Part shown: one piece after another, positions 26,265-41,896 of the stretch
How the letters are laid out: each line of letters begins with the position of its first letter
How positions within the stretch are numbered: position 1 is the first letter of the stretch
Assembly (NCBI GenBank): GCA_964633325.1
Contig: CAZWFS010000001.1
Coordinates: 3,063 to 67,062 of the forward strand
DNA from: an uncultured Candidatus Saccharibacteria bacterium
GTDB lineage: Bacteria; Patescibacteriota; Saccharimonadia; Saccharimonadales; CAZWFS01
DNA: 64,000 nt
Direction of reading: 5' to 3'
Program-made: the position numbers and the translations under genes
The notes under the pieces: generated by a model
Told to the model about the DNA's origin: nothing
The model's database searches: none
What the model saw: only the letters and a program-made list of their open reading frames with translations

Positions 26265-26270
26265 ACTAAC

Positions 26271-26762
26271 TTAGCTCTCATCTTTCATTAACAGTATTGG
26301 CGGGTCAAAAAAGCTCATTTCATCTTTATCGGGTGGCTGTAGCTGGCTGGCAGATTTCTCAAGTCGTTCACGTGTTAGTGGTGCGTCAAGCTCTGTTTCT
26401 TTTTTATTACGAGTATCAACACGCTGCCATAGTTCCTCAAAAGGTAGCTCTAAATAATGTAACTCAATCCTTAATCCATTAGAATGAGCTTCAAGCCTTA
26501 ACTTATCTCGCTCCTCACGTCCCCAGAAACCATTTTCAAGAACAACATTGCTACCTGACTTCGCTAACTTTAATGCCTTTTTCCATTGTTCGGCTTCAAT
26601 ATCCGCCCTGGCTTTCTCGTCAAAGAAGCTAATGCCACGTTCGTATAGCTCTTGGTCTGGACTCATGACAACTGCTGGCATTTCACTAGCCAGTTTCTTT
26701 GCAAGCGTAGACTTACCAGCACCTGGCAAACCGCATAACAATACTAGAGTTCCTTGTTTCAT
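26271..26762 (-). CDS. small P-loop kinase-like protein (AAA_33/zeta-toxin/phosphotransferase-like)
   Basis: Walker A LLCGLPGAGKSTLAK at the N-terminus, about 160 aa. Confidence 0.5.
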   Translation of the reverse strand: MKQGTLVLLCGLPGAGKSTLAKKLASEMPAVVMSPDQELYERGISFFDEKARADIEAEQWKKALKLAKSGSNVVLENGFWGREERDKLRLEAHSNGLRIELHYLELPFEELWQRVDTRNKKETELDAPLTRERLEKSASQLQPPDKDEMSFFDPPILLMKDES

Positions 26763-28237
26763 TTAATTTCCTTATCTAAGTTAATTGTACGACTTATGCC
26801 GACCTGACGTAAGAAGTATTTATCGTGTGAAGCAATTAGCATTGCGCCTTGATAATTTTGCAGTGCAGCTTCAATCTTTTCTCTAGTCGGTAAGTCTAAA
26901 TGATTGGTTGGCTCGTCAAGGATTAGTAGTTGGTTTTGAGAAAGAAGCAACTTAGCAAAACTTAGCTTTGATTGCTGACCACGAGATAGTTCACTCGGCT
27001 TCTTTCTAAGCTCGTTTTCGTCTAGTCCTAGACTTCGTGCTTCACGATAAATTGCTGTTGAGGTAGCAGTTGTAACTTCAAGATTTTCAAAATTAGTCAG
27101 GCTGTAGTCCAGTCCATTAACGTCTTGTGAGAAATAACCAAACTTTATATCTTGTCCTACTTCTACAGTGCCAGTATTCGGCGTGAGTAAGTGAGCAGCA
27201 ATTTTAAGTAGCGTAGTTTTGCCACTGCCATTTGTACCTTGAATATGTAGTCTTTCGGTTCCTCGTATTTCAAAGTCAGGGTACGTAATAGTCTTATTGC
27301 TGTAGTTTTTTCTAACATTTTCAGCTCCTAGAATAAGCTTAGTTGGCGGAACATTCCCACCTAGTGTAACTTTATAGTTTTTGCTGGATTCTGGCTTCTC
27401 AACTTCCTCTAATTGCTCAAGCCGACCTTGTAACATTTTAGAGTTTTGCCCGAACTTAACAGTTACACGATTACGGAAAAAGTCCCTTTGGTACTTATCG
27501 TTATCATTGCGTTTAATATGCTTATGGGCGTGTTGGCTCTTATCGCTCTGTACCTTAATAGCTTTTTCTAGTCGTTTGCGTTCCTCAATGTTGCTTTCAT
27601 ATTTTGCATATTCACTCTGATATTCAATTTCCTTTTGTTGTTTGTAGAAATCGTAATCCCCACCGTATTGCTTAAGTTCGCCGTTGCGTAGTTCGGCAAT
27701 ACTAGTTGAGACTTTGTTGATGAAGTGCCTATCGTGGCTTACAAGCACAATACCGCCCCTAAAGTTTTTAACGAATTGTTCCAACCATACTAGACCGCCA
27801 GCGTCTAAATTATTGGTAGGCTCATCAAGCAGCAACATTGTTGGTTCTGGGTCTTTTGCGAGTACTTTCGCTAGTGCCAAGCGTGTTTTCTGACCACCAC
27901 TTAAGCTAGAAACAGCTCTGGTTTTTGGTACGCCTTCAAGCCCAACCAGACTTAGCGTATGGTCAATTTTCCAGTCTTCGCTGTGCTTATCAAAGCTATC
28001 TTGAATAGTGCCAACTGATTCAGCTTCCTGTGGCACATAGCCTACTGCTTCATGATGTAGTGCAATGTTGCCACTATCAGGCTTTAGCTCCCCTAAAACT
28101 ATTTTAAGCAAAGTAGTTTTACCCGCTCCATTTTCGCCAATAAGAGCAATGACCTCGCCAGCATTAACTGACAGACTTACATCTTTAAGCACAGGTTTAT
28201 CTCTGTATGATTTGTGTATGTGTTGCAAGGTAAACAT
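26759..28237 (-). CDS. ABC-F family ATPase (two tandem NBDs, no TM domain)
   Basis: Two Walker A motifs (GENGAGKTT and GTNGSGKTT), two LSGGQ-like signatures (LSGGQKTRL and LSRGQQSKL) and two Walker B motifs. Its 492 aa are in the range of antibiotic-resistance (ARE) ABC-F proteins. Confidence 0.8.
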   Translation of the reverse strand: MFTLQHIHKSYRDKPVLKDVSLSVNAGEVIALIGENGAGKTTLLKIVLGELKPDSGNIALHHEAVGYVPQEAESVGTIQDSFDKHSEDWKIDHTLSLVGLEGVPKTRAVSSLSGGQKTRLALAKVLAKDPEPTMLLLDEPTNNLDAGGLVWLEQFVKNFRGGIVLVSHDRHFINKVSTSIAELRNGELKQYGGDYDFYKQQKEIEYQSEYAKYESNIEERKRLEKAIKVQSDKSQHAHKHIKRNDNDKYQRDFFRNRVTVKFGQNSKMLQGRLEQLEEVEKPESSKNYKVTLGGNVPPTKLILGAENVRKNYSNKTITYPDFEIRGTERLHIQGTNGSGKTTLLKIAAHLLTPNTGTVEVGQDIKFGYFSQDVNGLDYSLTNFENLEVTTATSTAIYREARSLGLDENELRKKPSELSRGQQSKLSFAKLLLSQNQLLILDEPTNHLDLPTREKIEAALQNYQGAMLIASHDKYFLRQVGISRTINLDKEIK

Positions 28238-28448
28238 ATAAACTCCTAACTAAAAAAACCGAGCGTTGGTTAACGAAATATCGCCACACAACTGCTCGGT
28301 CTTTTACAAGGGTTTAACTGATAGAAAAACAATCAAATAGCAAAGCTACACAAAGCTGTGTGAACGACTTTAGCGGTTGATTGTTACTATCATAAGTACG
28401 TTTAACTCCTTTAGATAGCTACATTGTATAACAATTATGTTTATCTTG

Positions 28449-28994
28449 TCAAATTGACAGTTTTATTATCTCGTCTACAACTTTTTCAAGTGGCTGTTCT
28501 GCATTAACAAGCATTGCGCCATAGCTTTTCATTTGTTCGTCAATAGTATTATTCCAACCTAGTATATCTTTTAAGTCATCGGGGTGTTTTCCGTAATCAT
28601 TATTAGTTCTGTCATCAAGACGTTGCTGCAATACTTCATTACTAATTGAAAGGCTTATGACCTTATCAAATAAGTCCCATACATCTTTATCATTTGGAGT
28701 TGTACCGCATAGAAAAAAAGGCTTACCTTTAGTTTTAGCAAGTTCGGCAATTTCTTCTACTTTTGAGCGTTCTACTTTTAACCAATACCGCTTACGCCAC
28801 TCGTTAGTAGTATCCGTCCACCCTTTTTGCTCAGCAGCTTTTTTATCAGTTGAGCGGTTGTACCACACCCTAAAATTATCTTCATCAACATCATAAGCGT
28901 CATATCCACGCCTTTTTAATTCAAGCCGAATGGTTGATTTTCCAGTTCCTGAAATCCCAGTAATGAATATGAGTGGCATAGAGTAATTATACAA
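28449..28994 (-). CDS. small P-loop kinase-like protein
   Basis: Walker A ITGISGTGKST, about 180 aa. Architecture resembles small nucleotide/antibiotic kinase folds. Confidence 0.45.
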   Translation of the reverse strand: MYNYSMPLIFITGISGTGKSTIRLELKRRGYDAYDVDEDNFRVWYNRSTDKKAAEQKGWTDTTNEWRKRYWLKVERSKVEEIAELAKTKGKPFFLCGTTPNDKDVWDLFDKVISLSISNEVLQQRLDDRTNNDYGKHPDDLKDILGWNNTIDEQMKSYGAMLVNAEQPLEKVVDEIIKLSI

Positions 28995-29154
28995 AATTAT
29001 ATGCTCTGGAATAGTTGCTGTTTAAGGCACATACAGGCGTTTTAACGTGAGTTTATGGCAAACCTGCGGAATTGTAGGGAAACGGACTTTTCGTACAGCA
29101 AATCTGCAAAAAACAAAGAGAAAACACTGCGTTTTCAAATAATCTGTCAGAAAA

Positions 29155-29625
29155 CTATTGTCCTTGCTTATGTGGCGCATTCTTACCGTTAAAACCAGGT
29201 TGCACAGCAATTCTAGCTTTCCATTCTGCGTTATCAAGCACTGATACTGGTTCGGCGTTGTGTAGCTCCCGAAAGTCTTCACGAGCTGCTTTAATGACAC
29301 TACTAATTACTAAAGCACTGGGATAGAAATGTGGTGTTAGCAGTATTTGGGTCTTACTGCCAATATGCTGTTTGTCTAATACCTGGTAATAAAGGTGTGA
29401 AGGAAATATATACAATCCTTGTTGCTTGTAGTCCCCGTCTTCTATTCCGAAGTCTTTACCGATATTTGTTATAAATATAAATCTAACGTTGCAGTTACTA
29501 AGCAAACCACCACGCAAGGTTGAAGCCGTTACAGGATTAAGAGCGTGTACCCAATCGTTTAGCACATACCTTTCCAGCAGCCGTCCATTGGCTTCTATGT
29601 CGGCGTAAAGGAAATTAAAAGTCAT
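29155..29625 (-). CDS. hypothetical protein; its start overlaps the upstream HTH gene's stop
   Basis: ORF overlaps the upstream HTH gene by 11 nt, suggesting an operon; no motif. Confidence 0.3.
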   Translation of the reverse strand: MTFNFLYADIEANGRLLERYVLNDWVHALNPVTASTLRGGLLSNCNVRFIFITNIGKDFGIEDGDYKQQGLYIFPSHLYYQVLDKQHIGSKTQILLTPHFYPSALVISSVIKAAREDFRELHNAEPVSVLDNAEWKARIAVQPGFNGKNAPHKQGQ

Positions 29626-29857
29626 AAGCCACTACTTCACCTAACTTTGAAAGGTATAAAAGATTTGTGCGAGCATTATTTATCTTTTCAGCGAAGACCT
29701 TTTCATTACGAAAATGTCGGTAAAAAGTGTCCCTGCTGATACCAGCATAAGCGCAAGCTTCCGAAATACTTGAGCCGTGCTGCAAAGCGTCTTCCAGCTT
29801 GCTCATTACGGTGTAATTAACTTTGGCGGGTCTGCCGTTAGCTTTTTTATTTGTCAT
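29615..29857 (-). CDS. small helix-turn-helix DNA-binding protein
   Basis: GSSISEACAYAGISRDTFYRHF is a typical HTH of transposase-OrfA or terminase-small-subunit type. Confidence 0.45.
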   Translation of the reverse strand: MTNKKANGRPAKVNYTVMSKLEDALQHGSSISEACAYAGISRDTFYRHFRNEKVFAEKINNARTNLLYLSKLGEVVAYDF

Positions 29858-29985
29858 AAAACTCCTGTTTGTTTTTGTTTAAGGCTCTCTATTTATTATG
29901 ACAAAAATAGCACTTTAGTTATCTGACATTAGTAGAAATATAGCTACAGTGAGTATTTACCTGTCTGTCCGTATAAAATAGGACT

Positions 29986-30753
29986 ATGAAGAAGTCCGAA
30001 CTACAAAAATTGGTTGATGAACTTTTTGCTCAAGATTATCAAGGAGCAAGCCAATCTTACTCACGACCTGTTCTTTGGCCGACAGATTACAATAAAATCA
30101 TTGAAACCGCTCGCAAGAAACTAGGAATAACCAGTAAGGCACTTATGATTATTGGTAAGAACCAGGGCATATTGAGCCGTAAAGACGGAGTTATTGGCGC
30201 AAAGGATTACTACCCAATAGCCGAGGACAAGTATCTTGAGTTGGTTATCGCTCATATAAAAAGTAGCTCTAAGGCTAAGACTGATGTTCAAGCAAAGGAG
30301 CACTTTTATTCAGTGGTTGATGAAGTCCTTGGGCGAACTGGACTATCGGAAGAATGGCGGGAGTATGTAGCGGTATTCATCGTAACTAATATGCCACCAA
30401 GTAAAAACTTTCCAGCACCTTACCCATTCATTACTGTCCAAGATACTGATGACGATTCTGTAACTATCAAAATCCACAGAGGCATACGATATGAAGAATA
30501 TATTACGGCGTGGGCTGCTCTAGCCGAGTTTCTAGGACTAGGCAGACGTAAGGCTAAAAAACTTAGCGAGAAAACAGCAGCAATCCATGCTCAAATGTAT
30601 GGCAAGCGAGAGTTCTACGGACTTACGTACAGACAATTAGCAGAGGAGTACGGCATTGAACGCCTTACCGTTGATGACGCAAAGGACTACGTTAAGAAAG
30701 TCATTAAAAGACAAAAGAAACTGCGCAATGGGGGGACAGATTTAACTAAGTGA
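29986..30753 (+). CDS. hypothetical protein; first gene of the integrative element
   Basis: ORF only. Confidence 0.35.
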   Translation: MKKSELQKLVDELFAQDYQGASQSYSRPVLWPTDYNKIIETARKKLGITSKALMIIGKNQGILSRKDGVIGAKDYYPIAEDKYLELVIAHIKSSSKAKTDVQAKEHFYSVVDEVLGRTGLSEEWREYVAVFIVTNMPPSKNFPAPYPFITVQDTDDDSVTIKIHRGIRYEEYITAWAALAEFLGLGRRKAKKLSEKTAAIHAQMYGKREFYGLTYRQLAEEYGIERLTVDDAKDYVKKVIKRQKKLRNGGTDLTK

Positions 30754-30881
30754 TTTGCGTCTCCTTATAAATTATTGCATAGCATGTACGATAGTAATGT
30801 GATGATTTAAGGAACCGTTCTAGGACAAATATAAACGTCATCACATCTAGTGCGGTTCCCATTTCAGAAGGGGGTTCCATC

Positions 30882-31850
30882 ATGGACCCAATTAAAAAAA
30901 TAGACGAGCTTATGGGGCAGCATTTCCCAGAGCAGGAATACATTGTGGACAGGCTTGTGCCTGACGGTTCAATAACAATCCTGTCGGGTGCGTCAGGCTC
31001 GTTCAAGACCTACTCACTACTACAAATCGCAATAGCGGTGGCGAGTGGTAAACCGCTCTTTGAGCAGTACCAAACACAGCAAACAGGCGTACTCATCATA
31101 GATGAGGAAAACGGTGAACGCCTAATGCAGAAACGGCTGTACCAGCTCGGTGCAACAGCAGATTTGCCAATCTACTTTACGCCAAGAATGGGCTTTGAGC
31201 TGACAGAAGAAAATATAGATAACGTGCTGTTATCGTGCCTAACATACGACTTGAAGCTAGTTGTTATAGACAGCTTAATCCGTGTGCATAGCGCAGACGA
31301 AAACAGTGCCAGAGAAATGGCAAAAGTCTTTAAGCTACTACGTAAGTTTACAGAACAAGGCGTAGCGGTATTGGTAACACAGCATAACCGCAAGCCTGGC
31401 GCAAACGGTGGCGGAGCTGGCAATGAAATGCGTGGCTCAACCGATATACGGGCAGCCATAGATAGCCACATAGGCGTTACTCGCAAGAATAAGTGGTACC
31501 TAACCTTTGACCAAACCAAGCAACGCTACGATGTGGAACTTGACCCGTTCAAAGTTAAGGTGAATGCCGATAAAGACAGCTTCACCTTTGAGTACCTCGG
31601 CACTCTTACGGCGGAAGCTAACACGGCAGAACAGCTATACAAAGCGGTTACTGACCTGCTGGCGGAACATGAGCAACTTTCACAGAAAGAGCTGCTGGCA
31701 AAGCTTGCAGATACCGAAGCTAAGACTAACGAGCATACCTTGCGGGAACTGCTTAAACAGTGGGTTGCAGAAGGTGTGTTACCTCAGCCAAAACCAGGTG
31801 TTGGTAAGACTAAGTACTACCACCTTGAAGCAGAGGTTAGTAATGAGTAA
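30882..31850 (+). CDS. RecA-like AAA ATPase (AAA_25/RepA-type, replicative helicase-loader-like)
   Basis: Walker A SGASGSFKTY and Walker B LVVIDSLIRVH. Typical of plasmid and phage replication ATPases. Confidence 0.55.
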   Translation: MDPIKKIDELMGQHFPEQEYIVDRLVPDGSITILSGASGSFKTYSLLQIAIAVASGKPLFEQYQTQQTGVLIIDEENGERLMQKRLYQLGATADLPIYFTPRMGFELTEENIDNVLLSCLTYDLKLVVIDSLIRVHSADENSAREMAKVFKLLRKFTEQGVAVLVTQHNRKPGANGGGAGNEMRGSTDIRAAIDSHIGVTRKNKWYLTFDQTKQRYDVELDPFKVKVNADKDSFTFEYLGTLTAEANTAEQLYKAVTDLLAEHEQLSQKELLAKLADTEAKTNEHTLRELLKQWVAEGVLPQPKPGVGKTKYYHLEAEVSNE

Positions 31851-32067
31851 GCCAGAACCGAAAAACCGAGCTACTAATAGTAGTGCTAGCTTACTCGGTT
31901 CCGACAACCCACTACATGAAATGTACGAGCGTCCATTAACTAAGGCAGACGAAGAACAGATGATGTTCAACCTCGTCAACTTTGTAGAAACGCTGATAGC
32001 AATGGACAAGCAACACAAACAATGGAAAGAAAACAAGCAAGTAACTAAGGAGCAAGAAAATGAATAA
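31843..32067 (+). CDS. small hypothetical protein; ATGAGTAA start/stop overlap with the upstream gene
   Basis: In-frame ATG overlapping the upstream stop and preceded by GAGG. The longer track ORF 31564.. lies antisense and out of frame inside the upstream gene. Confidence 0.3.
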   Translation: MSKPEPKNRATNSSASLLGSDNPLHEMYERPLTKADEEQMMFNLVNFVETLIAMDKQHKQWKENKQVTKEQENE

Positions 32068-32512
32068 GCAAGACAAGGCAACAGAAAAGTTAATGGAAAA
32101 TATATGTACCGCAGTAGCCGAGTATCACAGCAAGGCAATGTCGGACCACGTAAAGACAGCAATGCAGCAACTAGCCAAAGCTGGATATGCGCTAAGGCGC
32201 CCACCTTTTGGTTACTCAACCACAGAAACTAGCGGATTGTTCCGCATAAACCGTATAGGCATGGCTATGCGTGTAGCAATGCAGGAAGCAGCCAACGGTG
32301 AGGTTTCTAGCGAGGAGTTTAAGCTACGGCTTTCTATCCTCTTTAGCGGTGAATCACTGGATATACGTAGTAAGGCTAGTCTAAAACGAATAGTTTCAAA
32401 TCCGTACTATATCGGCTTAATACGTTGTGGCAATGAGCTGTATAAGGGCTTGCACGAGCCACTGATTACGGCAGAGGAGCAGCAGAAGCTAATAGAGATA
32501 TTGGAAGCATAG
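32060..32512 (+). CDS. recombinase-domain-only protein (serine recombinase fragment lacking the catalytic resolvase domain and zinc ribbon)
   Basis: RRPPFGY and NPYYIGLIRCGNELYKG match the recombinase-domain motifs seen in the three full-length serine recombinases in this window (NPFYVG, NPYYCG, NRYYMG). Confidence 0.5.
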   Translation: MNKQDKATEKLMENICTAVAEYHSKAMSDHVKTAMQQLAKAGYALRRPPFGYSTTETSGLFRINRIGMAMRVAMQEAANGEVSSEEFKLRLSILFSGESLDIRSKASLKRIVSNPYYIGLIRCGNELYKGLHEPLITAEEQQKLIEILEA

Positions 32513-32590
32513 CCACTTGGGGGAGTTTATCTCCCCCTTGCTGGTAGCAATTACCAGAGGTACATCATAAAATATAAGTAGGAAACAATA

Positions 32591-34093
32591 ATGAATTATT
32601 TAATAGCACGGGTATCAGACCAAGACCAAAAGAAAGCCTTACCAGCGCAAAAGAAACGACTTGAAGACTACGCCAAGAGCTTAGACTGGATTGAGGATAA
32701 AGATTACAAATATATTGAGTTTGACGAAACAGCGTTCAAAGATAATCGCAAACGATTTAACGAACTAGTTCTAGCACCAATAGTAAATGCAATAGATAAA
32801 TCCATAATAGTCCACGATAAAGTGGACAGATTCACGAGGGATTCTTCATCAGAAGAAAAATCTATCCTTACCAGGCTTGCTAAACAAGACAAGATTGAAC
32901 TGCACTTTCCGCACGACCACCTTATTATTAACTCTGAATCAGCAGCAACGGCACATTTCCAGTTTGATATAAATGTAGCTTTAGCTAGCTACTATTCAGG
33001 GGCTATTCGGGACAATGTTAAACGCCGATTTGACCAAATGCTAGATGACGGTATCTGGATTGGACGTGCGCCAATAGGCTACGTTAATTATCAAGAACAC
33101 GACGCTAACGGCAAAGTTATTTTTAAGGGCATACGTTTGGACTTAGAGCGTGACTACCACGTCAGGAAAGGCTTTGAGTTGCGCTCCACTGGGCTGTCCT
33201 ACAAAGCTATTGCCAAAGAAATGAAGAAAGCTGGTCTGCGTAGCCGTACTGAAAAAGCCGTAGTAATCAGTGCAGCGCAGTGGGAAGAAATACTTAACAA
33301 TCCGTTTTATGTAGGCAGAATGGTGTTTAAGGGTAAAGAGTATGACCATAACTATGACACTATTGTAGAGCCTTGGCTCTGGGACAAAGTACAGGAAGTC
33401 AAAAACAGACGGGCTAATGGCAAAACCAAGTACAACAGTAAGCCATTCCTGTTTAAGAACTTAAAGTGCCACGTCTGCGGGTATTCAATAACCTTTGACG
33501 GACCTAAGCACAATGGCAAGACTTACGGGAAGTGTACCGAGTATGGTGGCAAGCACGGCGCAGTATGGGTAAATGAAGAAATACTTATTGAGCAAGTGCG
33601 TGAGCTGCTAAGAGCCATTCAGCTTCCTAAACGTCTGTTACCTAAATTAGTTGCTGAAATAGATAAGAACCACGCTAGTGAGCAAGACCGCTATGTTACT
33701 ACTAGAACTCGCTTAGAAAAAGAATATAACGCCCTGGACGAAGAACTAGAGGACTTATTTAAAGACCGCAAGCAGTTCAAAACCCGCCACGAGCTGTTTG
33801 AGCGAATGGTTAAAAAGATTGAAAAGCGTCAGAAAGATATTATGGAAGACCTGAAAGACCACAGTGCTGGCGATAAGGCGTTTGTTATCGGCGCAAGCTA
33901 CTTATTAGATGTATGTAGTCGTGCAGTTGAGTTGTTTGACGCTGAAAGTACGAAAGTGGAGCAAAAACGGTACCTAATAGAGTTCATACTTACGTACATA
34001 ACTTTGGACGGCGAAAAGCTGCATTTAACACTTAAGGAACCGTTTGAAGCGGTCATTTCATTGGCAAAAACTGGGAAATGGTACACCCGATAG
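32591..34093 (+). CDS. large serine recombinase (integrase)
   Basis: N-terminal catalytic motif LIARVSDQDQ, recombinase domain (GYVNY...NNPFYVGRMVFKG), Cys-rich zinc ribbon (CHVCGYS...CTEYGG) and a C-terminal coiled coil. Confidence 0.8.
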   Translation: MNYLIARVSDQDQKKALPAQKKRLEDYAKSLDWIEDKDYKYIEFDETAFKDNRKRFNELVLAPIVNAIDKSIIVHDKVDRFTRDSSSEEKSILTRLAKQDKIELHFPHDHLIINSESAATAHFQFDINVALASYYSGAIRDNVKRRFDQMLDDGIWIGRAPIGYVNYQEHDANGKVIFKGIRLDLERDYHVRKGFELRSTGLSYKAIAKEMKKAGLRSRTEKAVVISAAQWEEILNNPFYVGRMVFKGKEYDHNYDTIVEPWLWDKVQEVKNRRANGKTKYNSKPFLFKNLKCHVCGYSITFDGPKHNGKTYGKCTEYGGKHGAVWVNEEILIEQVRELLRAIQLPKRLLPKLVAEIDKNHASEQDRYVTTRTRLEKEYNALDEELEDLFKDRKQFKTRHELFERMVKKIEKRQKDIMEDLKDHSAGDKAFVIGASYLLDVCSRAVELFDAESTKVEQKRYLIEFILTYITLDGEKLHLTLKEPFEAVISLAKTGKWYTR

Positions 34094-34155
34094 GATTCGA
34101 ACCTACGACCTTTGGCTCCGCAAGCCAACGCTCTATCCAGCTGAGCTACGGGTGC
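34079..34155 (-). tRNA. tRNA-Arg (anticodon read as GCG; unusual and to be verified) with encoded CCA; overlaps the recombinase stop codon
   Basis: The reverse complement reads GCACCCG-TA-GCTC-AGCTGGATA-GAGC-G-TTGGC-TTGCGGA-GCCAA-AGGTC-GTAGG-TTCGAAT-CCTAT-CGGGTGT-A-CCA. The cloverleaf has a G1:U72 pair. Confidence 0.55.
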
Positions 34156-34995: not shown

Positions 34996-35088
34996 GAACC
35001 GAACGTGGCGGAGAGGGAGGGATTCGAACCCTCGCGGGGGATTGCTCCCCCCTATCGATTTAGCAAACCGACCCCTTCAGCCTCTTGG
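34996..35088 (-). tRNA. tRNA-Ser (anticodon GCU) with a long variable arm and encoded CCA
   Basis: The reverse complement reads GGAGAGG...TCGGT-TTGCTAA-ATCGA-(19-nt variable arm)-GAGGG-TTCGAAT-CCCTC-CCTCTCC-G-CCA. Confidence 0.75.
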
Positions 35089-35494
35089 GTACCTCTCCTT
35101 GCGCCAGACTCGGCCATTATAACAAACGCGGAGGAATACGGGCCTGGAATTTTTAGGGGCCCTCCGACTTTATAATTACTCGCTCAGGATTTTTCGGTCT
35201 CCTGGCCCGCCATACACTTGTCAAATGGCGGGACATTCGGGTCTGGAACCTTTCACCCTGTTTCTGTCCCTATACAGTCTAGCGGATAAAATGGGACACA
35301 ACCAGACTAGTTTGTGCCATTTTTGTAAAATCTCATCTGAAAATGAGACAAATGGAACAAGCGTCTCATTAAAAGACGTGTCCCATTCTATGAGGTAACT
35401 TGACTACAATCATAAGTTATGACATAGCAAGCATAACTACACGCTTATGTTAGTATAGAAGCGAAATAGTCCGTGAATCCTTGCGAGAGACGGA

Positions 35495-37099
35495 CTATTT
35501 TACTTTCTTGACCATTTTCTTGCGCCTTTCCATAGACAAAGCCAGAATAGCTTCGGTAATGTGGCGCATATTCATTGGCTCATGCCAGTTAACTTTGGTG
35601 ACTCGCACATAATGCGTCCTAGGCTTACCGTATTGATGTCTTTGGATGGTGACATGGTCGTCAATGGCGGCTTTGGCAAAAAACGCTAGGCAAAAATGCC
35701 GTTTGATAGCCGGATTAGCATTAACGTACGCTTTGGCAAAATCTAAGCCTTCCGCAAGCTGTAAGGCGCGGTCTCGACGAAAAGTGATAGTCGCTAAACG
35801 CTTCTCAGCTTCCTTGATAACGGATTTAGCTTGCTTAATGTCATGGCTGATCCGCTTTTGTTCGCTCTTCATGAGCTCGGCCGCAATCATTTTGTCATAG
35901 TAGGCCTGCAGCAAGTTCTCCTGCTCAGCTAGCAAATTATTTAGCCGCTGCTGTTGCTGTTTGACCTCGGTTTCAGCAAAGTGCTGTTCGCTCTTAAGCT
36001 CCTCGCCTACTTGCTTAACCAATAGTTCCCGGTCATCGGCCGAAACCTTGAGCCTCTTGAATTGCCGAGCGATAACTTCTTCGATCTTAGCGACTGGCAC
36101 ATATGGCAGGTCACAGCTACCGTCCTTACGATTCAGACAAAAGTAATAGCCGTATTCAACACCGTATCGATTCTTAGATACGCAGTAACAAAGGTGGCGA
36201 TCACAGCGACCGCATAAGAGTAGTCTGGATAGGTAATGGAAGTGGTGCCGGTGCTTGTTATCCCTAATTAGGTGATTAAGTCGCACCATTTGGACAGCTG
36301 CAAAGACAGATGACGTGACAATGGGCTGATGTCTGCCCTTATACTCGACGCCCATATAACGGACATAGCCCATGTAATAGCGATTGGTCAGCATCTTGTT
36401 AAGGCCGCCTAAGCTAAGTGGCGCTACGACTGAGCGTCTACGGATACGGCTCCTGAGGCCGCGTCGAGCCAGAGCTTCACACAACTGTCGTTGTCCATAG
36501 TCGCCGGTGGCATAACGTTCAAAGGCCCAGCGCACCAGTGGCGCTCGTACCGCATCGAGGATCACTGAGCGGACTTCGCGCCTATTAATTCGTTCAATGA
36601 CGTTGGTGTAACCAATGGGGGCTTGGAATGGTGTACCTCCTTGCTTGGCTTTCTCAGTGGCTCCTTTTAAAGCTTCAGCCGCCAGGTTACGGCTATAGAA
36701 CTCAGCAATGGCAGCCATAATGCCGTGTAGTAACTGGCCGGATGGTGTATCATCGATGTTTTCAGTGACACTGACAAGCTGCGCCCCACCTTTCTTGATG
36801 GCAAGGCCAATCATGACATCGTCGTGGAGATTGCGAGCTAGCCGGTCAATCTTATGAACAATGACGTATTCAATCTTCTTCTTGTCGCACAAGTCTTGTA
36901 AAAGCTGCTGCAATCCTGGTCGAGCAGCTGATCTGGCTGACTCACCACGGTCGACGTATTCTTTAATCTTGGTAGCACCCAGCTCCTTGGCTTTGCGTCT
37001 ACAAGCCTCTCGCTGCGCTGGAATCGAGAATCCATCCCGATTCGTATTACCTTTGATTTGATCGAGCGTTGACACTCGCAGATATATAGCTACTTTCAT
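35495..37099 (-). CDS. large serine recombinase (integrase); start placed at the internal ATG that has a GGGAGGAG RBS
   Basis: MKVAIYLRVSTLDQ catalytic motif, recombinase domain (NRYYMGYVRYMG), CxxC...C zinc-ribbon region and a long C-terminal coiled coil. The track ORF carries a 66-aa N-terminal extension. Confidence 0.8.
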   Translation of the reverse strand: MKVAIYLRVSTLDQIKGNTNRDGFSIPAQREACRRKAKELGATKIKEYVDRGESARSAARPGLQQLLQDLCDKKKIEYVIVHKIDRLARNLHDDVMIGLAIKKGGAQLVSVTENIDDTPSGQLLHGIMAAIAEFYSRNLAAEALKGATEKAKQGGTPFQAPIGYTNVIERINRREVRSVILDAVRAPLVRWAFERYATGDYGQRQLCEALARRGLRSRIRRRSVVAPLSLGGLNKMLTNRYYMGYVRYMGVEYKGRHQPIVTSSVFAAVQMVRLNHLIRDNKHRHHFHYLSRLLLCGRCDRHLCYCVSKNRYGVEYGYYFCLNRKDGSCDLPYVPVAKIEEVIARQFKRLKVSADDRELLVKQVGEELKSEQHFAETEVKQQQQRLNNLLAEQENLLQAYYDKMIAAELMKSEQKRISHDIKQAKSVIKEAEKRLATITFRRDRALQLAEGLDFAKAYVNANPAIKRHFCLAFFAKAAIDDHVTIQRHQYGKPRTHYVRVTKVNWHEPMNMRHITEAILALSMERRKKMVKKVK

Positions 37100-37156
37100 A
37101 GCTCCTCCCTTCATTAAGTTAGCCTTCTTATGATGGAAGGATGAGATAATATAGCT

Positions 37157-37753
37157 ATGAGACCCGAAGACTTTACCCGTATAGACTTCAGCCAGATAGA
37201 CCGTATGGCTGCAAATGCTTTGCGGGCGGCGGAACTCGTCCAGCCCAGTGTAGATAGGGCTATTGAAGTGCTCAGTCGCATACAAACAGATATTCAACCG
37301 TATATGCCCAAGATCTTAGAAGCCGTAGAACGGATTCGGCCGGTTATCCTTCGTACTTCAAGCATCTATTTCATGCCATCAAATACGTTAACTCCTACTC
37401 AAACCCAGCCCTTGCTTGCCGAGCCAGCAGTCCCACCCACTCAGCGGCTTAAAAAGAACATCTGTTTAGTTGCCGGTAACAGTTTCAAATTTAAAAACAA
37501 AGCACTCCGAGCCGTAACCCTAACATCTAAGCCTGGCAAGCTCTTGCAACTGCTACTAACAAGTAACGAGCACTTCGTCACTGATGCAGCCATCTGCCGT
37601 GAGCTAGACTTGGAAGACATACGTGGTTTTAGCTATGTGCTGCGTGATCTTAAGAAATTTTTCCGCCAAAATGAGCTCGAAATTATTATTGAAGACCGCA
37701 AAAATCCTAACGGCTATATTCTCATAGATATCCGAAAAACAGATACAAACTAA
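37157..37753 (+). CDS. hypothetical protein; divergent neighbour of the integrase and a possible element regulator
   Basis: ORF only. Confidence 0.3.
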   Translation: MRPEDFTRIDFSQIDRMAANALRAAELVQPSVDRAIEVLSRIQTDIQPYMPKILEAVERIRPVILRTSSIYFMPSNTLTPTQTQPLLAEPAVPPTQRLKKNICLVAGNSFKFKNKALRAVTLTSKPGKLLQLLLTSNEHFVTDAAICRELDLEDIRGFSYVLRDLKKFFRQNELEIIIEDRKNPNGYILIDIRKTDTN

Positions 37754-37845
37754 CTCACTTTGACTCCTAATTAGCCATTTTTTAGTTCCGTCGTGTAACG
37801 GCACTTCTTAGCGTAGCTTTATAAGTGTTAACTAAGGAGTTAAAA

Positions 37846-39171
37846 ATGAGTGAGCAAACATTAGCAATCCAACAAGTAAGCGTCAAGGATTTAAATTCAG
37901 CGCCATACAATCCCCGTAAGTGGAGTGAAGATGCTATTAAGCAGCTGACCGACAGCATCCAGCAGTTCGGTTTGGTTGATCCAATTATTGTGAACGGTAC
38001 ACCCGAGCGTAAGAACGTGGTCATTGGTGGCCACTTCCGTTTGAAAATTGCCAAAGACCTGGGATTCAAAGAAGTGCCAGTAGTCTACGTTAATATTCCA
38101 GATGAAGCCCGCGAAAAAGAGCTGAACCTGCGGCTCAATAAAGCTGTTGGTGACTGGGAGTGGACGTTGCTGGCTGAATTCGATGAAACTCTGCTGGTAA
38201 ATGTTGGTTTCACTAGCGAGGAACTGGACACCATCTTCGACCTTGATGAAGTCATACCAGAAGAATTTGACCTGCAGAAGGAGTTAGATAAGCTCAAGAT
38301 CACTGAGATCAAGGTTGAGAAAGGCGACGTCTACCAGCTCGGTGATTCGCGTCTAATGTGCGGTGACTCCACCATTCCTGAAGATTTTGCCAAGCTGATG
38401 AACGGCGAACAGGCTGACATGTGCCTGACTGACCCACCCTATATCCTCGACTACTTAAAAAGTGGCAAACGCCATGGCAAGCCTACCGAAGGCTTTGGTG
38501 CTAAGAAAAACCGTCGCTACCTGGAAACTGACGTCTTGCCAGACAACTTTACTGAGCTTTGGATGGCCAACGTCGCTGCCCATGCCAAATCAGACTTCAG
38601 CATCATTGTCTACGAGAACTGGAAAAACCTACGCATCATCTGGACCGAGATGGAAAAGTACTGGAAGGTTAAAAACATGATCGTCTGGCATTTGCCAAAC
38701 CGCAATCAAGGTTTTGCAGCCAAGTACAAGTTTTTCTCTAAGCACGACATTGCCATGGTCGGTGCTAGCGGCGATATACCGTACAACCATGATGAGGAGC
38801 CGGAGGGCCTGCAAGAAGAATACGAATCAGCACTTTTCGCAATTGCTGGCAAACCTCAGTGGGAGGGCTACCAAAAAGGTAGAAAGTACCAGCCAACCGA
38901 CTTTATCGACTTTAATGCCGCCGACGAGAAAAGCTCTGGTCAGGCCATTATCTTCGGTGTTAAGCCGCTGGAAATCCTAATCCCATACATAAAGGTCCTG
39001 ACTAAACGTGGTGACCTAGTTGTAGAACCATTTTGCGGCAGCGGCAGCACTTTAGTTGCAGCCACCAAACTGCACCGGCGCTGTTACATCATGGAAAAGT
39101 CACCAGTCTACGCTGAAGTCGCTATGGATCGCTGGGAAAAAGCGACTGGTCTCAAGCGAGTTAAGCTATGA
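37846..39171 (+). CDS. ParB-like nuclease N-terminal domain fused to an N4/N6 DNA methyltransferase
   Basis: The ParB-N region (GGHFRLKIAKDLGFKEVPVVYV) is followed by a DPPY catalytic motif (CLTDPPYILDY) and the SAM-binding motif FCGSGSTLVAA. An AAGGAG RBS precedes the ATG at 37846; the track ORF starts at a GTG at 37825. Confidence 0.7.
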   Translation: MSEQTLAIQQVSVKDLNSAPYNPRKWSEDAIKQLTDSIQQFGLVDPIIVNGTPERKNVVIGGHFRLKIAKDLGFKEVPVVYVNIPDEAREKELNLRLNKAVGDWEWTLLAEFDETLLVNVGFTSEELDTIFDLDEVIPEEFDLQKELDKLKITEIKVEKGDVYQLGDSRLMCGDSTIPEDFAKLMNGEQADMCLTDPPYILDYLKSGKRHGKPTEGFGAKKNRRYLETDVLPDNFTELWMANVAAHAKSDFSIIVYENWKNLRIIWTEMEKYWKVKNMIVWHLPNRNQGFAAKYKFFSKHDIAMVGASGDIPYNHDEEPEGLQEEYESALFAIAGKPQWEGYQKGRKYQPTDFIDFNAADEKSSGQAIIFGVKPLEILIPYIKVLTKRGDLVVEPFCGSGSTLVAATKLHRRCYIMEKSPVYAEVAMDRWEKATGLKRVKL

Positions 39172-39566
39172 GCCGTAACCAAAAAACAGATAAGAAACGC
39201 TTGCTAGAGAAGTTAGCTAAGACACCAATTGTGGAAATCGCCTGCAAGCAAGCTGGTGTACCACGTAGCACCTACTACCGGTGGCGTAAGGATGATGAAA
39301 CCTTTGCCAACCAGTGCGACGAAACCATTGAGCAAAGCGCAGGCCTGATCAATGACATGGCTGAGAGCCAGCTTATCCAAGCCATTAAAGACCAGAACAT
39401 GACGGCTATTATCTTTTGGTTGAAGCACCACCATCCAACCTACTATGCCCGACTTCGGCTGGATGGGCACATCAAACATGAGAGTGAGGAACTAACGCCA
39501 GAACAGACCGAGGCGGTCGTTCGGGCGCTGGCATTCTTGAAGGAGAGTAACGATGGCAGTGGCTGA
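39168..39566 (+). CDS. terminase small subunit-like HTH protein
   Basis: IACKQAGVPRSTYYRWRKDDETF HTH. It overlaps the methylase stop (ATGA) and lies immediately upstream of terL. Confidence 0.5.
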   Translation: MSRNQKTDKKRLLEKLAKTPIVEIACKQAGVPRSTYYRWRKDDETFANQCDETIEQSAGLINDMAESQLIQAIKDQNMTAIIFWLKHHHPTYYARLRLDGHIKHESEELTPEQTEAVVRALAFLKESNDGSG

Positions 39567-41118
39567 ACTAGTTGACCTAACGCAGCTATCCGCTGGTGAT
39601 CTGGAGCACATCCGTAGCTCTAAGCAAGTTCGCATGGGCATCGCTAGCCGTAGCCTGACCGGTTTTATGCATTTGTACTTCCCCGAATACATCACCCGAC
39701 CCACAGCACCTTTTCATCATGAAATGTACGGTTTGCTTGAAGATGAGGCCATCGATCATCTAGTACTAATGGCCTTTCGGGGTTCTGGTAAGTCGACCAT
39801 TGTTACCCTCGGTTATCCCATCTGGGCAGCCTTAGGCACACCCAGCAAAAAGTTTATTCTAATCGCCAGCCAAACCCAACCGCAAGCCCAACAGCATCTC
39901 AAAAACATTAAACGGGAGTTTGAGAGCAATGAACTGTTGCGAAAAGACTTCGGCCCGCTGAATGAAATAGCCGACGAATGGGGCTCGGTATCGTTGGTAC
40001 TTCCTAAGTTTGATACTCGCATCACAGCCGTATCGGTTGAGCAAAGCATCCGTGGGGTGCGTCACGGGCCTCATAGGCCCGATTTAATTATTGCTGACGA
40101 TGTGGAAGATAGTAACTCAGTGAAAACTCGCGAGGGACGTAATAAGGTCTTTGACTGGTATACCGGCGAAGTTGTCCCTGCTGGTGATACCAATACCAAA
40201 AGAGTTGTCATTGGCAACCTGCTGCACGAAGACTCTTTGCTGATGCGCCTGAAAGAGGCCTTTGCGTTAAAAATGATGCAGGGCGTGTTCAAATCATATC
40301 CATTGATTAAGCACGGCAAACCGCTGTGGCGCGGTAAATACCCTGATAGCCAGGCGCTGCGGCGTGAGGAGTTGCGGGTCGGCAACCGGGTAGCCTGGCA
40401 CCGTGAGTACCTGTTGGAGATACTGCCAACCGAAGACCAAGTGGTACATCGAGGATGGCTACGCTACTACGATGAGCTGCCCGAACTTAATCGTGAAAAT
40501 CCTGACAATACACTGCGTTACTACAACACCTACCTAGGTATAGATTTAGCGATCAGCCAAAAAGATACCGCTGACTACACCGCCATGGTGGCAGTACACG
40601 TGTTTGGATTCCAAGAAACTTTGAAAGTTTACGTTGACCCCCTGATTATTAACAAGCGGCTGACTCATTTGCAGACGCTGGAAACCATTGCTCAGGTGGT
40701 GGAATCCGTAGGTGATAAGTACAAAGTGGAAATTATTGTCGAGGACGTTGGCTACCAGTCGTCCGTAATTGAACAACTGCAGAACAAAAACTACCGCGTG
40801 GAACCGTTTAAAGTTCTGGGTGCTGACAAACGTGCTCGTTTTATCTCTGTTAGCCACTTGTTTGAATTTGGTCGGATCTATCTGCCTAGAGCTGCTTCCA
40901 AGGAACTAGCTAACCAACTGACTGGGTTTGGCGTCGAAAAGCATGATGACCTGGTTGATGCTATCGTCATGACCCTTGGTAAAGTGGTGAGTAAAGACAA
41001 ACCGATTGGTACCTACAGTGGAGTTAGGCTTGGCAAACATAGCCTCTGGAAAGATTTTGACGACTTCGAGAATGGCCGAGGCCGGTGGTCGCTTAGTCGG
41101 TTTGATCAGCAGTGGTAG
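39553..41118 (+). CDS. phage terminase large subunit
   Basis: Walker A FRGSGKST and Walker B DLIIADDVED in the ATPase domain, followed by a C-terminal RNaseH-like nuclease region with conserved acidic residues. Confidence 0.75.
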   Translation: MAVAELVDLTQLSAGDLEHIRSSKQVRMGIASRSLTGFMHLYFPEYITRPTAPFHHEMYGLLEDEAIDHLVLMAFRGSGKSTIVTLGYPIWAALGTPSKKFILIASQTQPQAQQHLKNIKREFESNELLRKDFGPLNEIADEWGSVSLVLPKFDTRITAVSVEQSIRGVRHGPHRPDLIIADDVEDSNSVKTREGRNKVFDWYTGEVVPAGDTNTKRVVIGNLLHEDSLLMRLKEAFALKMMQGVFKSYPLIKHGKPLWRGKYPDSQALRREELRVGNRVAWHREYLLEILPTEDQVVHRGWLRYYDELPELNRENPDNTLRYYNTYLGIDLAISQKDTADYTAMVAVHVFGFQETLKVYVDPLIINKRLTHLQTLETIAQVVESVGDKYKVEIIVEDVGYQSSVIEQLQNKNYRVEPFKVLGADKRARFISVSHLFEFGRIYLPRAASKELANQLTGFGVEKHDDLVDAIVMTLGKVVSKDKPIGTYSGVRLGKHSLWKDFDDFENGRGRWSLSRFDQQW

Positions 41119-41360
41119 AGCTAGGCTGCTAAACCCGCATTGTCCTAGCCTTCTCCTCTGTTGACAGGTATAATGCTGATTGTCTAGGTCACTGATAAGC
41201 GAACGCGGTTCGCGTAGTTAAGCCATAGTAATGGGCAGCTACGTGAAAAGTAGGCTTAACGGCTTATCTGTGACCTAGACAGTTACTAGCGTGGCTGTCC
41301 ATTTTTATATAAGGGCAGCCTCCAAAACAACTAACTAGGCCTTCAGGAGGGGCTGTCAAA

Positions 41361-41816
41361 ATGAGTAAAGATAAAAGCGGAAACTGGTTCGGCAGGCACA
41401 AAATATTAACAGTAGTTGGTGTCCTTATTGTCATAGGCATCATAGCTAGTGCGGCTGGTGGGAATAAATCCAATACACAAACGGTGCCTAACAGTAATAG
41501 CAATACAACAACTACGGCACCGACCCCAGCTCAGCAAACACAACCGCAAAAAGAAAAGCTAACAATTAAGAACTCGACTTACTCGGAAACGAGCGGTCTC
41601 AAGCAGGTAGTCGGTGAAGTAACAAATAATGACTCCAGCCAGCACTCGGCTACCCTAAAGGCAACCTTCTACGACGCAAATGGCAAAATCTTAGGAACTG
41701 CCAGCGGCGCGGTCAACGAAGTAGCTCCAGGTGAAACCAAAACCTTCACGCTGATCACCGCCGACAATGTCAGCGGCTACAAGGACATGAAAGTTCAGGT
41801 CGACACACTGCTATAG
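41361..41816 (+). CDS. small secreted or membrane-anchored protein
   Basis: Signal-anchor (ILTVVGVLIVIGIIASAAG), a Thr/Asn-rich linker and a beta-rich C-terminus. AGGAGGGG RBS. Confidence 0.4.
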   Translation: MSKDKSGNWFGRHKILTVVGVLIVIGIIASAAGGNKSNTQTVPNSNSNTTTTAPTPAQQTQPQKEKLTIKNSTYSETSGLKQVVGEVTNNDSSQHSATLKATFYDANGKILGTASGAVNEVAPGETKTFTLITADNVSGYKDMKVQVDTLL

Positions 41817-41896
41817 TATATTCAAACAAAGAGCTAATGTATGGCCGAGCCTTCGGGCTCGGTTATGGTTTGCTAATGCTAAACTACTAATGAACT

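Follow-up and report, generated by a model that had tools for sequence, protein, structure and literature searches.

The 64,000-nucleotide stretch analysed here (the window) comes from an uncultured Candidatus Saccharibacteria bacterium and carries, from about 35,224 to about 41,870, an island of phage-type packaging genes linked to a serine recombinase. Its limits were set by comparison with the closest relative, locus L001, and the right end is approximate. Judging from its relatives, the region is a copy of approximately 6.6 kb of a conserved family of mobile elements distributed across the ultra-small Patescibacteria (Candidate Phyla Radiation, CPR), and its host is probably a member of the Saccharimonadia. 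By the comparison of loci, the conserved core of the family is a ParB_N-methyltransferase, the small and large terminase subunits (TerS and TerL) and a recombinase. By homology, the packaging module, that is, the ParB_N-methyltransferase, TerS and usually TerL, is phage-derived. We give about even chances to the reading that the island is a helper-dependent, satellite-like element belonging to a widespread and apparently undescribed integrative family of Patescibacteria. Very little is known of the phages and mobile elements of CPR/Patescibacteria, and a literature search that did not extend to most subscription journals gave no account of this cassette, nor of any Patescibacteria island with terminase genes.

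The window was annotated by calling open reading frames (ORFs) and comparing them with Pfam, PHROGs and NCBIfam; PADLOC 2.0 was used for defence genes and Rfam for RNAs. The genes of the island, with protein lengths in amino acids (aa), are the following.

35495-37102, minus strand: large serine recombinase with Resolvase, Recombinase and Zn_ribbon_recom domains; phrog_95 integrase, 2e-83
37157-37753, plus strand: 198-aa protein, no family match, first gene of the plus-strand operon
37825-39171, plus strand: fusion of ParB_N and N6_N4_Mtase (Pfam; phrog_498, 2e-83), first ATG at 37846
39168-39566, plus strand: TerS-like protein with an N-terminal helix-turn-helix (HTH); several PHROG TerS families, best 6e-10
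39553-41118, plus strand: TerL; phrog_38, 2e-87, nearly full length; Terminase_6C; T7-type N-terminal domain (NCBIfam)
41361-41816, plus strand: 151-aa secreted FxLYD/DUF4352-like protein; phrog_14275, weak match to a Sie-like family

The original prediction, made from the letters of the DNA, had named an integrase, a ParB-N/methyltransferase, TerS and TerL, and all four are present and intact at these coordinates according to the ORFs, Pfam and PHROGs. The start of terS overlaps the methyltransferase stop and its end overlaps the start of terL. TerL had been called apparently intact from its Walker A and B motifs; the alignment shows both (FRGSGKST and DLIIADDVED) plus the acidic residues of the RNase H-like nuclease (D331, E397, D465, D466, and D469), so that by its motifs the protein is an intact terminase with ATPase and RNase H-like nuclease, and across the 168 aligned sequences its catalytic residues show no disruption. 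The integrase is of the serine class and not of the tyrosine class, with matches to PF00239 (1e-32), PF07508 (6e-10), and PF13408 (2e-7) and a visible YLRVST motif; its start is probably the ATG at 37102 (MKVAIYLRVST..., 535 aa) and not the TTG at 37297.

It had also been claimed that no portal, capsid, tail or lysis genes accompany the terminase, and this holds: none of these families matched any ORF of at least 130 aa in 35.4-43 kb (Pfam, PHROGs). In the same way, no structural gene was recognised among the scanned window ORFs, which cover about 23-47 kb. Primase, Rep, and helicase had no match in 35.2-41.9 kb (Pfam, PHROGs), an alpA/merR/stl-type regulator had no Pfam, PHROG, or NCBIfam match among the element ORFs, and the search for a capsid-morphogenesis (size-redirection) gene gave no head-related match beyond TerS and TerL (Pfam, PHROGs). 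With PADLOC, only generic methyltransferase models matched, and TerS, TerL, the recombinase and the unassigned proteins had no match.

The 198-aa protein belongs to a fast-evolving family that was found in 19 of 87 loci, the slot being filled elsewhere by unrelated genes. Considering that iterative hidden Markov model (HMM) searches and hhalign did not join the occupants of this slot before the methyltransferase into one family, we place it outside the conserved core. A homologue search with the protein found only two, and its single-sequence AlphaFold model was unusable (predicted local distance difference test, pLDDT, 51). Its sequence, when read, raises no more than a suspicion of a C-terminal winged helix.

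The cassette recurs widely. An exact look-up of the window TerL gave no record, but homologues at 50-60% identity number in the thousands; many lie on contigs of 0.3-1.1 Mb and some on contigs labelled Saccharimonadales or Patescibacteria. When the TerL alignment was run against GTDB, one genome being taken per species, at least 595 stretches with a TerL relative were obtained, of which 80 were fetched and inspected over ±10 kb around each cassette; these came from Saccharimonadia, from Berkel-, Peri-, Dojka-, Gracili-, Kuenen-, Falkow-, Portnoy-, and Levyibacteria, and from Paceibacterota. In IMG/VR, a scan with a single query returned remote relatives only, and the alignment-based scan gave cassette loci. 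The order methyltransferase, in some cases a second methyltransferase, TerS and TerL was found in all 80 fetched stretches and in about 50 IMG/VR loci. ORFs were then called and clustered over 175 loci from GTDB and IMG/VR: the methyltransferase cluster was present in 134 loci, TerS in 117, and the serine recombinase in 90 of the 175, while 129 had both the methyltransferase and the TerL clusters. The usual place of the recombinase is one or two genes 3' of terL on the same strand. Against the left-hand, minus-strand enzymes of L095 and L099, two loci of one IMG/VR contig, the window recombinase shows 68% identity; against the right-hand ones found in most cassettes it shows 26-30%. No structural family was found in the Pfam-annotated gene contexts of the relatives, and no ORF of the 129 cassette loci was similar to the portal, capsid, protease or tail genes of the related phages described below.

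Variation around the core was also seen. tRNA genes adjoin or lie near the cassette in many loci, in several of them just past the right-hand recombinase. Several genomes or contigs hold two cassettes; complete pairs 10-27 kb apart on one contig were seen for L095 and L099 (a 39-kb contig, each with its own left-hand recombinase), for L125 and L129, and in L142. Two tandem TerL paralogues follow TerS in L016, L017, L019, L056, L076, L103-L105, L108, L109, and L290; both copies keep the catalytic residues of ATPase and nuclease, with D177 replaced by Q in five of nine second copies. In about 23 metagenome loci, found through the structured RNA leader described below, terL is missing and the order is ParB-methyltransferase, TerS, RNA leader, DUF4352 gene and serine recombinase (L179, L187, L191, L193, L214, L216, L217, L223, L230, L255, L261, and L273 among them); the TerS of these variants is 30-49% identical to that of the window. 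About seven copies are truncated or split (L032, L121, L130, L142, L148-L150), as is expected for a mobile element.

Many relatives carry, upstream, a divergent S24 LexA/CI-like repressor and, on the operon strand, a DUF2188 protein and a small HNH endonuclease. Cargo lies between terL and the recombinase or flanks the cassette. It includes restriction-modification systems of type I, type IIG-like and type III, GmrSD with an EcoRI-type methylase, the CD-NTase and Cap15 of a cyclic-oligonucleotide-based antiphage signalling system (CBASS), a TIR-caspase pair, and the reverse transcriptase and Avd of a diversity-generating retroelement (DGR), as well as ABC/FtsX transporters and metal-efflux genes. 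A PHROG scan of the conserved unassigned accessory genes of the relatives gave no structural or replication function. A DGR reverse transcriptase with bAvd adjoins the cassette in L001 (12376-13657), L002 (6021-7302), L026, L082, and L095, and L001 is the closest relative of the window island. A protein of 384-397 aa with only a weak zinc-ribbon match was seen in L029 (4351-5544), L288 (4955-6109), L001 (3306-4496), and about ten more loci, always on the opposite strand, left of the cassette and next to the S24 repressor.

The module appears to be maintained by selection. Conservation was read from 127 cassette TerLs of at least 430 aa within the alignment of 168 sequences: K80, R76, D182, D183, E185, D331, E397, D465, and D466 are kept in 125-127 of the 127, with no exception for the lysine of Walker A, the arginine that precedes the P-loop, and D182 and D183 of Walker B. 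Over all the catalytic residues checked, the range is 121-127. Against L001, whose TerL is 90% identical and whose island proteins are 82-92% identical to those of the window, the ratio of non-synonymous to synonymous substitution (dN/dS) was 0.03-0.04 for TerL, TerS, the methyltransferase and the 198-aa gene, values that are only approximate because dS is near saturation; the non-synonymous divergence of the same four genes was only 0.05-0.10. The 198-aa gene is thus under purifying selection too. The cassette of L001 adjoins leucyl-tRNA synthetase (LeuRS)-like, HTH-HAD, and HIT genes, whose window orthologues lie at 15.7-19.9 kb and are 50-53% identical. An island that is about 90% identical, at a different site in hosts with orthologues at 50-53%, points to a recent horizontal transfer.

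Phages with a homologous module were found in IMG/VR. There, TerLs of at least 36% identity belonged to cassettes and those of at most 32% to ordinary phages, with L146, L139, and L153 as exceptions. In L146, the genes after TerL encode a portal-MuF fusion, a protease/scaffold protein and the major capsid protein, and in L139 the methyltransferase and TerL precede the beginning of that same portal; the TerLs of both are 45-49% identical to cassette TerLs, which is the range found between cassettes. The 35-kb contig L176 has small early genes, the ParB-methyltransferase, a TerS of a different family, TerL, portal-MuF, scaffold, capsid and tail; its methyltransferase is 35% identical to that of the window and 53% to that of another cassette, and its TerL is 39% identical to that of the window. 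Taking the three phage loci together, identity to the cassettes was 35-53% for the methyltransferase and 39-49% for TerL, and in a crude neighbour-joining tree the phage TerLs nest inside the cassette clade. Beyond the methyltransferase and TerL, phage and cassette loci had essentially nothing in common, no structural gene being shared, and reading part of the phage contigs turned up no serine recombinase. There were 367 portal homologues, and the best 120 were all on contigs of at most 41.6 kb, while TerL homologues occurred on contigs of up to 1.1 Mb. This phage lineage of 35-42 kb is a candidate for the helpers or the ancestors of the islands. Among cultured phages, the best TerLs were only 23-28% identical and Mu-like, and uninformative as helpers. 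Within the lineage, L178 (8516-9568) carries a Terminase_3 where L176 (8440-9948) carries the cassette-type TerL, with a portal and capsid of the same lineage; the two TerL types are unrelated, which indicates that the packaging module has been exchanged between phages of the lineage. Of all the contigs fetched, L151 (IMG/VR, 12176 bp) alone has a terminal direct repeat (29 bp) and is possibly circular; its TerL is 31% identical to that of the window, and the two ORFs scanned gave no recognisable portal.

Taking into account a packaging module under selection, a mobile island with cargo and no morphogenesis genes, and a phage-sized lineage with a homologous module, we propose a helper-dependent transfer. 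The island would be integrated near a tRNA gene, and infection by, or induction of, a helper from the related phage lineage (35-40 kb) would lead to the expression of the island operon. The methyltransferase may mark (pre-methylate) DNA, and TerS would recognise a pac or cos site on the island DNA. The TerL of the island, or that of the helper in the variants that have none, would cut the DNA and pump it into helper procapsids through the helper portal. The island and the cargo 3' of terL would in this way be transduced, and the serine recombinase would integrate both in the new host. Several traits of the family are satellite-like: the variants with methyltransferase and TerS but no TerL, the divergent S24 repressor, the HNH endonuclease, and the usual defence cargo.

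A number of observations weigh against a satellite. No replication module (primase/Rep) was found with Pfam and PHROGs in the window element or in most relatives, which leaves DNA amplification and concatemer formation unexplained, and a search for terminal direct repeats among the fetched cassette contigs found no circular or excised form. The 6.6-kb element is far below a headful of 35-40 kb, and no genes for the redirection of capsid size were found. The window copy is without the S24 repressor and the HNH gene of its relatives. The nearest phage TerL is only 39-49% identical, so that compatibility with the portal is a presumption. The evidence is all comparative; helper, induction, pac site, excision and encapsidation are predictions of the proposed mechanism.

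Two other explanations compete with the mechanism proposed above, and we consider both unlikely. According to the first, the cassette would be a module for defence or for interference with packaging, in which the methyltransferase marks self DNA and TerS and TerL bind and cut the concatemers of invading phages or titrate their portal or terminase; the island would be kept for immunity and would move only by its serine recombinase and by routes such as natural transformation. The setting of the cassette agrees with this, as it lies in islands rich in defence genes (type I, IIG, and III restriction-modification, GmrSD, CBASS, TIR-caspase, DGR); the pairing of a methyltransferase with a nuclease resembles the logic of restriction-modification, nuclease and ATPase of TerL are both conserved, and satellites do interfere with the packaging of their helpers. 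However, PADLOC has no family for TerS, TerL or the unassigned genes, only generic methyltransferase models, and real phages use the same trio as their own packaging module. Moreover, the variants that have lost TerL keep the methyltransferase and TerS, which is better explained by a redirection of packaging specificity than by a defence built on the TerL nuclease.

The second, of similarly low probability, is lateral transduction in situ, in which the island would neither excise nor replicate and headful packaging, started by TerS and TerL at a chromosomal pac site, would export the cargo downstream and adjacent host genes in the capsids of a helper. Lateral transduction of defence genes is on record for phages and for phage-inducible chromosomal islands (PICIs) (PMC12829572, PMC8575950). 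Here a replication module would no longer be required, and its lack in the element is accounted for, as are the position of cargo and recombinase 3' of terL, in the usual direction of packaging, and the size of the element, much smaller than a headful. Discrete and recently transferred borders and a dedicated recombinase argue instead for movement as a unit; besides, this is a variant of the helper-dependent explanation and not a true alternative to it.

A dispersed and domesticated system similar to a gene transfer agent (GTA), or a split prophage with its head and tail genes elsewhere in the genome, is very improbable. GTA loci can be scattered across a genome, the inspection covered ±10 kb around each cassette, and two islands bearing recombinases lie side by side in the window. 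Nevertheless, the best 120 portal homologues were on contigs of at most 41.6 kb and the cassette TerLs on contigs of 0.3-1.1 Mb, the scanned window ORFs (about 23-47 kb) held no structural gene, the cassette varies in position and in copy number, as fits a mobile element and not a fixed host system, and genomes of about 1 Mb leave little room. The remaining possibility, raised in the original prediction as a degraded prophage, is an inert remnant that has lost its structural and lysis genes and keeps decaying packaging genes without present function, and although the phage origin of the module is clear, truncated or split copies occur at a few other loci and the window copy is minimal, we reject it as the least probable of all, the comparative data having already largely refuted it: the same boundary directly after terL recurs at 129 loci and across classes, no intermediate state of decay keeps a portal or capsid gene, dN/dS is about 0.03 with the 198-aa gene included, the catalytic residues of TerL are kept, and a recent transfer has carried the island between hosts with about 50% identity in their orthologues.

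Returning to the helper-dependent island, its borders and its host setting were examined with the help of the following features.

35006-35098, minus strand: tRNA-Ser(GCT) (ARAGORN, Rfam), host landmark flanking the left end
35224-35354, no strand assigned: left-end non-coding block, with an abrupt onset of similarity to L001 at about 35224
41841-41863, plus strand: GC-rich hairpin (GGCCGAGCCTTCGGGCTCGG) 3' of the last gene shared with L001

Nucleotide similarity to L001 spans 37142-41121, 41400-41815, and the non-coding block at 35226-35354 (129 nt), which is 90.7% identical to L001 (2928-3055), a value above the identity of the coding regions. The block is also present in L095 (1042-1173, 71%), beside the recombinase that is 68% identical to that of the window. 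Five repeats resembling AATGGGACA occur within about 100 nt of the block, the entire 64-kb window having 15 matches. We infer that the block is probably the terminus of the element or an att-proximal site; it could also be a pac-like site or an array of operators. At the other end, the similarity to L001 stops at 41815, which probably places the boundary, approximately, between 41816 and 41897. A repeat search gave nothing convincing as att-like repeats between the island ends, and no right-end block common to the window and L001 was found. The small secreted protein and the EamA transporter that had been predicted downstream are both there (Pfam, NCBIfam): the 151-aa gene is counted as part of the element because it is common to L001, and past it come EamA and then a class II aminoacyl-tRNA synthetase-like gene.

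A second island of low GC content (0.37-0.44) lies at 24450-34155, with ABC ATPases and AAA kinases and no terminase genes. It has an AAA_25 helicase-like gene (30882-31850), a fragment of a serine recombinase (32060-32512) and a full serine recombinase (32591-34093), whose 3' end overlaps the 3' end of tRNA-Arg(GCG) (34079-34155) by 15 nt. The possibility that the islands at 24.4-34.1 kb and 35.2-41.9 kb form a single composite element was considered and rejected: the intervening tRNA-Arg(GCG), membrane protein and tRNA-Ser(GCT) are a host arrangement which also precedes a different cassette in L004, and the two islands are therefore separate.

Between terL and the 151-aa gene the window encodes a structured RNA, with these features.

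41168-41174, plus strand: -10 box GTATAAT, invariant in the alignment
41181-41311, plus strand: structured RNA leader with a long P1, an inner helix, a pseudoknot and a terminator-like hairpin
41278-41308, plus strand: terminator-like hairpin and T-run, an alternative fold of the RNA 3' end

Counterparts of the 240 nt 3' of terL occur in 17 other cassette loci, at 69-86% nucleotide identity, and the TerLs of those loci are only about 50% identical in aa. The region folds much more stably than shuffled sequence (z = -6.6). An alignment of 14 sequences shows the invariant -10 box followed by an RNA of 130-150 nt with a 21-bp P1, an inner helix, a short helix, and a pseudoknot of AAUGGGCAG with CUGUCCAUU. 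In this alignment 94.9% of the paired cells can pair, against at most 44% with slid partners; 18 pairs are compensatory, and none of 500 shuffles reached the observed value. It was also possible to read from the alignment that, in most copies, an anti-Shine-Dalgarno (CCUCC) downstream faces the Shine-Dalgarno of the next gene. Rfam 15 gave no match at E≤1 over 33.9-43.1 kb, and for the RNA alone only noise at E≤10.

With a covariance model, the RNA was found in about 21 loci, always directly 5' of the small secreted DUF4352/FxLYD gene (the window, L003, L017, L019, L021, L023-L026, L028, L031, L040, L041, L047, L069, L089, L096, L099, and L117), and in 109 metagenome loci (L179-L287). In L047, the RNA and the small secreted gene are inverted as a unit. 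In the metagenome set the small gene is often directly followed by a serine recombinase, and the RNA also stands beside recombinases without any terminase genes. The RNA appears to be a riboswitch-like leader for the module at the right end of Saccharimonadia islands, and the 151-aa gene is the candidate for the gene it controls. The leader is uncatalogued and its covariation unusually clear, which makes it a candidate for a new regulatory RNA. A wider proposal, to which we give somewhat less than even chances, is that the islands form a phylum-wide satellite class of Patescibacteria, with TerS, TerL and ParB-methyltransferase, no capsid genes and serine recombinases, which would be a main vehicle of defence islands in these reduced genomes, and that in Saccharimonadia the RNA gates an operon of secreted protein and recombinase.

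If the helper-dependent explanation is correct, this would be the first satellite-type element proposed for Patescibacteria, and it would offer a concrete route for gene flow and exchange of immunity among epibiont genomes of about 1 Mb; a specific phage lineage of 35-40 kb becomes the candidate helper, testable in viromes. An intact temperate tailed prophage differs from the island in having portal, capsid, tail and lysis genes contiguous with terL. Cryptic prophages resemble it as phage-derived genes near a tRNA gene without morphogenesis genes, but the family of the window is under strong purifying selection, has a phylum-wide architecture and shows recent horizontal transfer. With the L176/L139/L146 phages it shares the homologous ParB_N-methyltransferase and TerL in the same order; these phages differ in their portal-MuF, scaffold/protease, major capsid, and tail genes, in a TerS of a different family, and in their phage-sized contigs.

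Among the known satellites, the core of a PICI is an integrase, an alpA/merR/stl regulator, a primase-replicase, a capsid-morphogenesis gene and terS, and capsid-forming PICIs (cfPICIs) encode terS and terL plus capsid, protease, portal, head-tail adaptor/connector and HNH genes (PMC10085698). Like PICIs, including the Staphylococcus aureus pathogenicity islands (SaPIs), the window element is a small integrated island with an integrase, its own terS, accessory or defence cargo in the family, and no tail or lysis genes; the divergent repressor of the relatives is a further likeness, and the variants without TerL are the most PICI-like. Of the five components that define a PICI, it has two, integrase and terS. 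The original prediction of a PICI-like satellite therefore stands in part: a satellite is the best-supported reading, by inference, while the PICI definition does not apply, as primase-replicase, AlpA/MerR/Stl regulator and capsid-morphogenesis gene are lacking. The element departs from PICIs also in its terL, its ParB_N-methyltransferase partner, its host among the Patescibacteria, and its large serine recombinase, PICI integrases being usually of the tyrosine type. With cfPICIs it shares terS and terL, and its relatives the HNH endonuclease, but neither the window element nor the 129 related loci have capsid, protease, portal, adaptor or connector. The PLE of Vibrio cholerae is a phage-parasitic island that uses a large serine recombinase for its integration (PMC6002521). 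The recombinase of the window belongs to the same class. PLEs protect their host, are confined to Vibrio and depend on the phage ICP1; they are not known to carry terL, nor is any other overlap in gene content with the window element known. Known satellites thus have terS only (PICI) or a full capsid module (cfPICI), and the island has TerS and TerL without capsid genes. Since it answers to neither the PICI nor the cfPICI definition, the element lies outside the described satellite families, although it plausibly works like a satellite.

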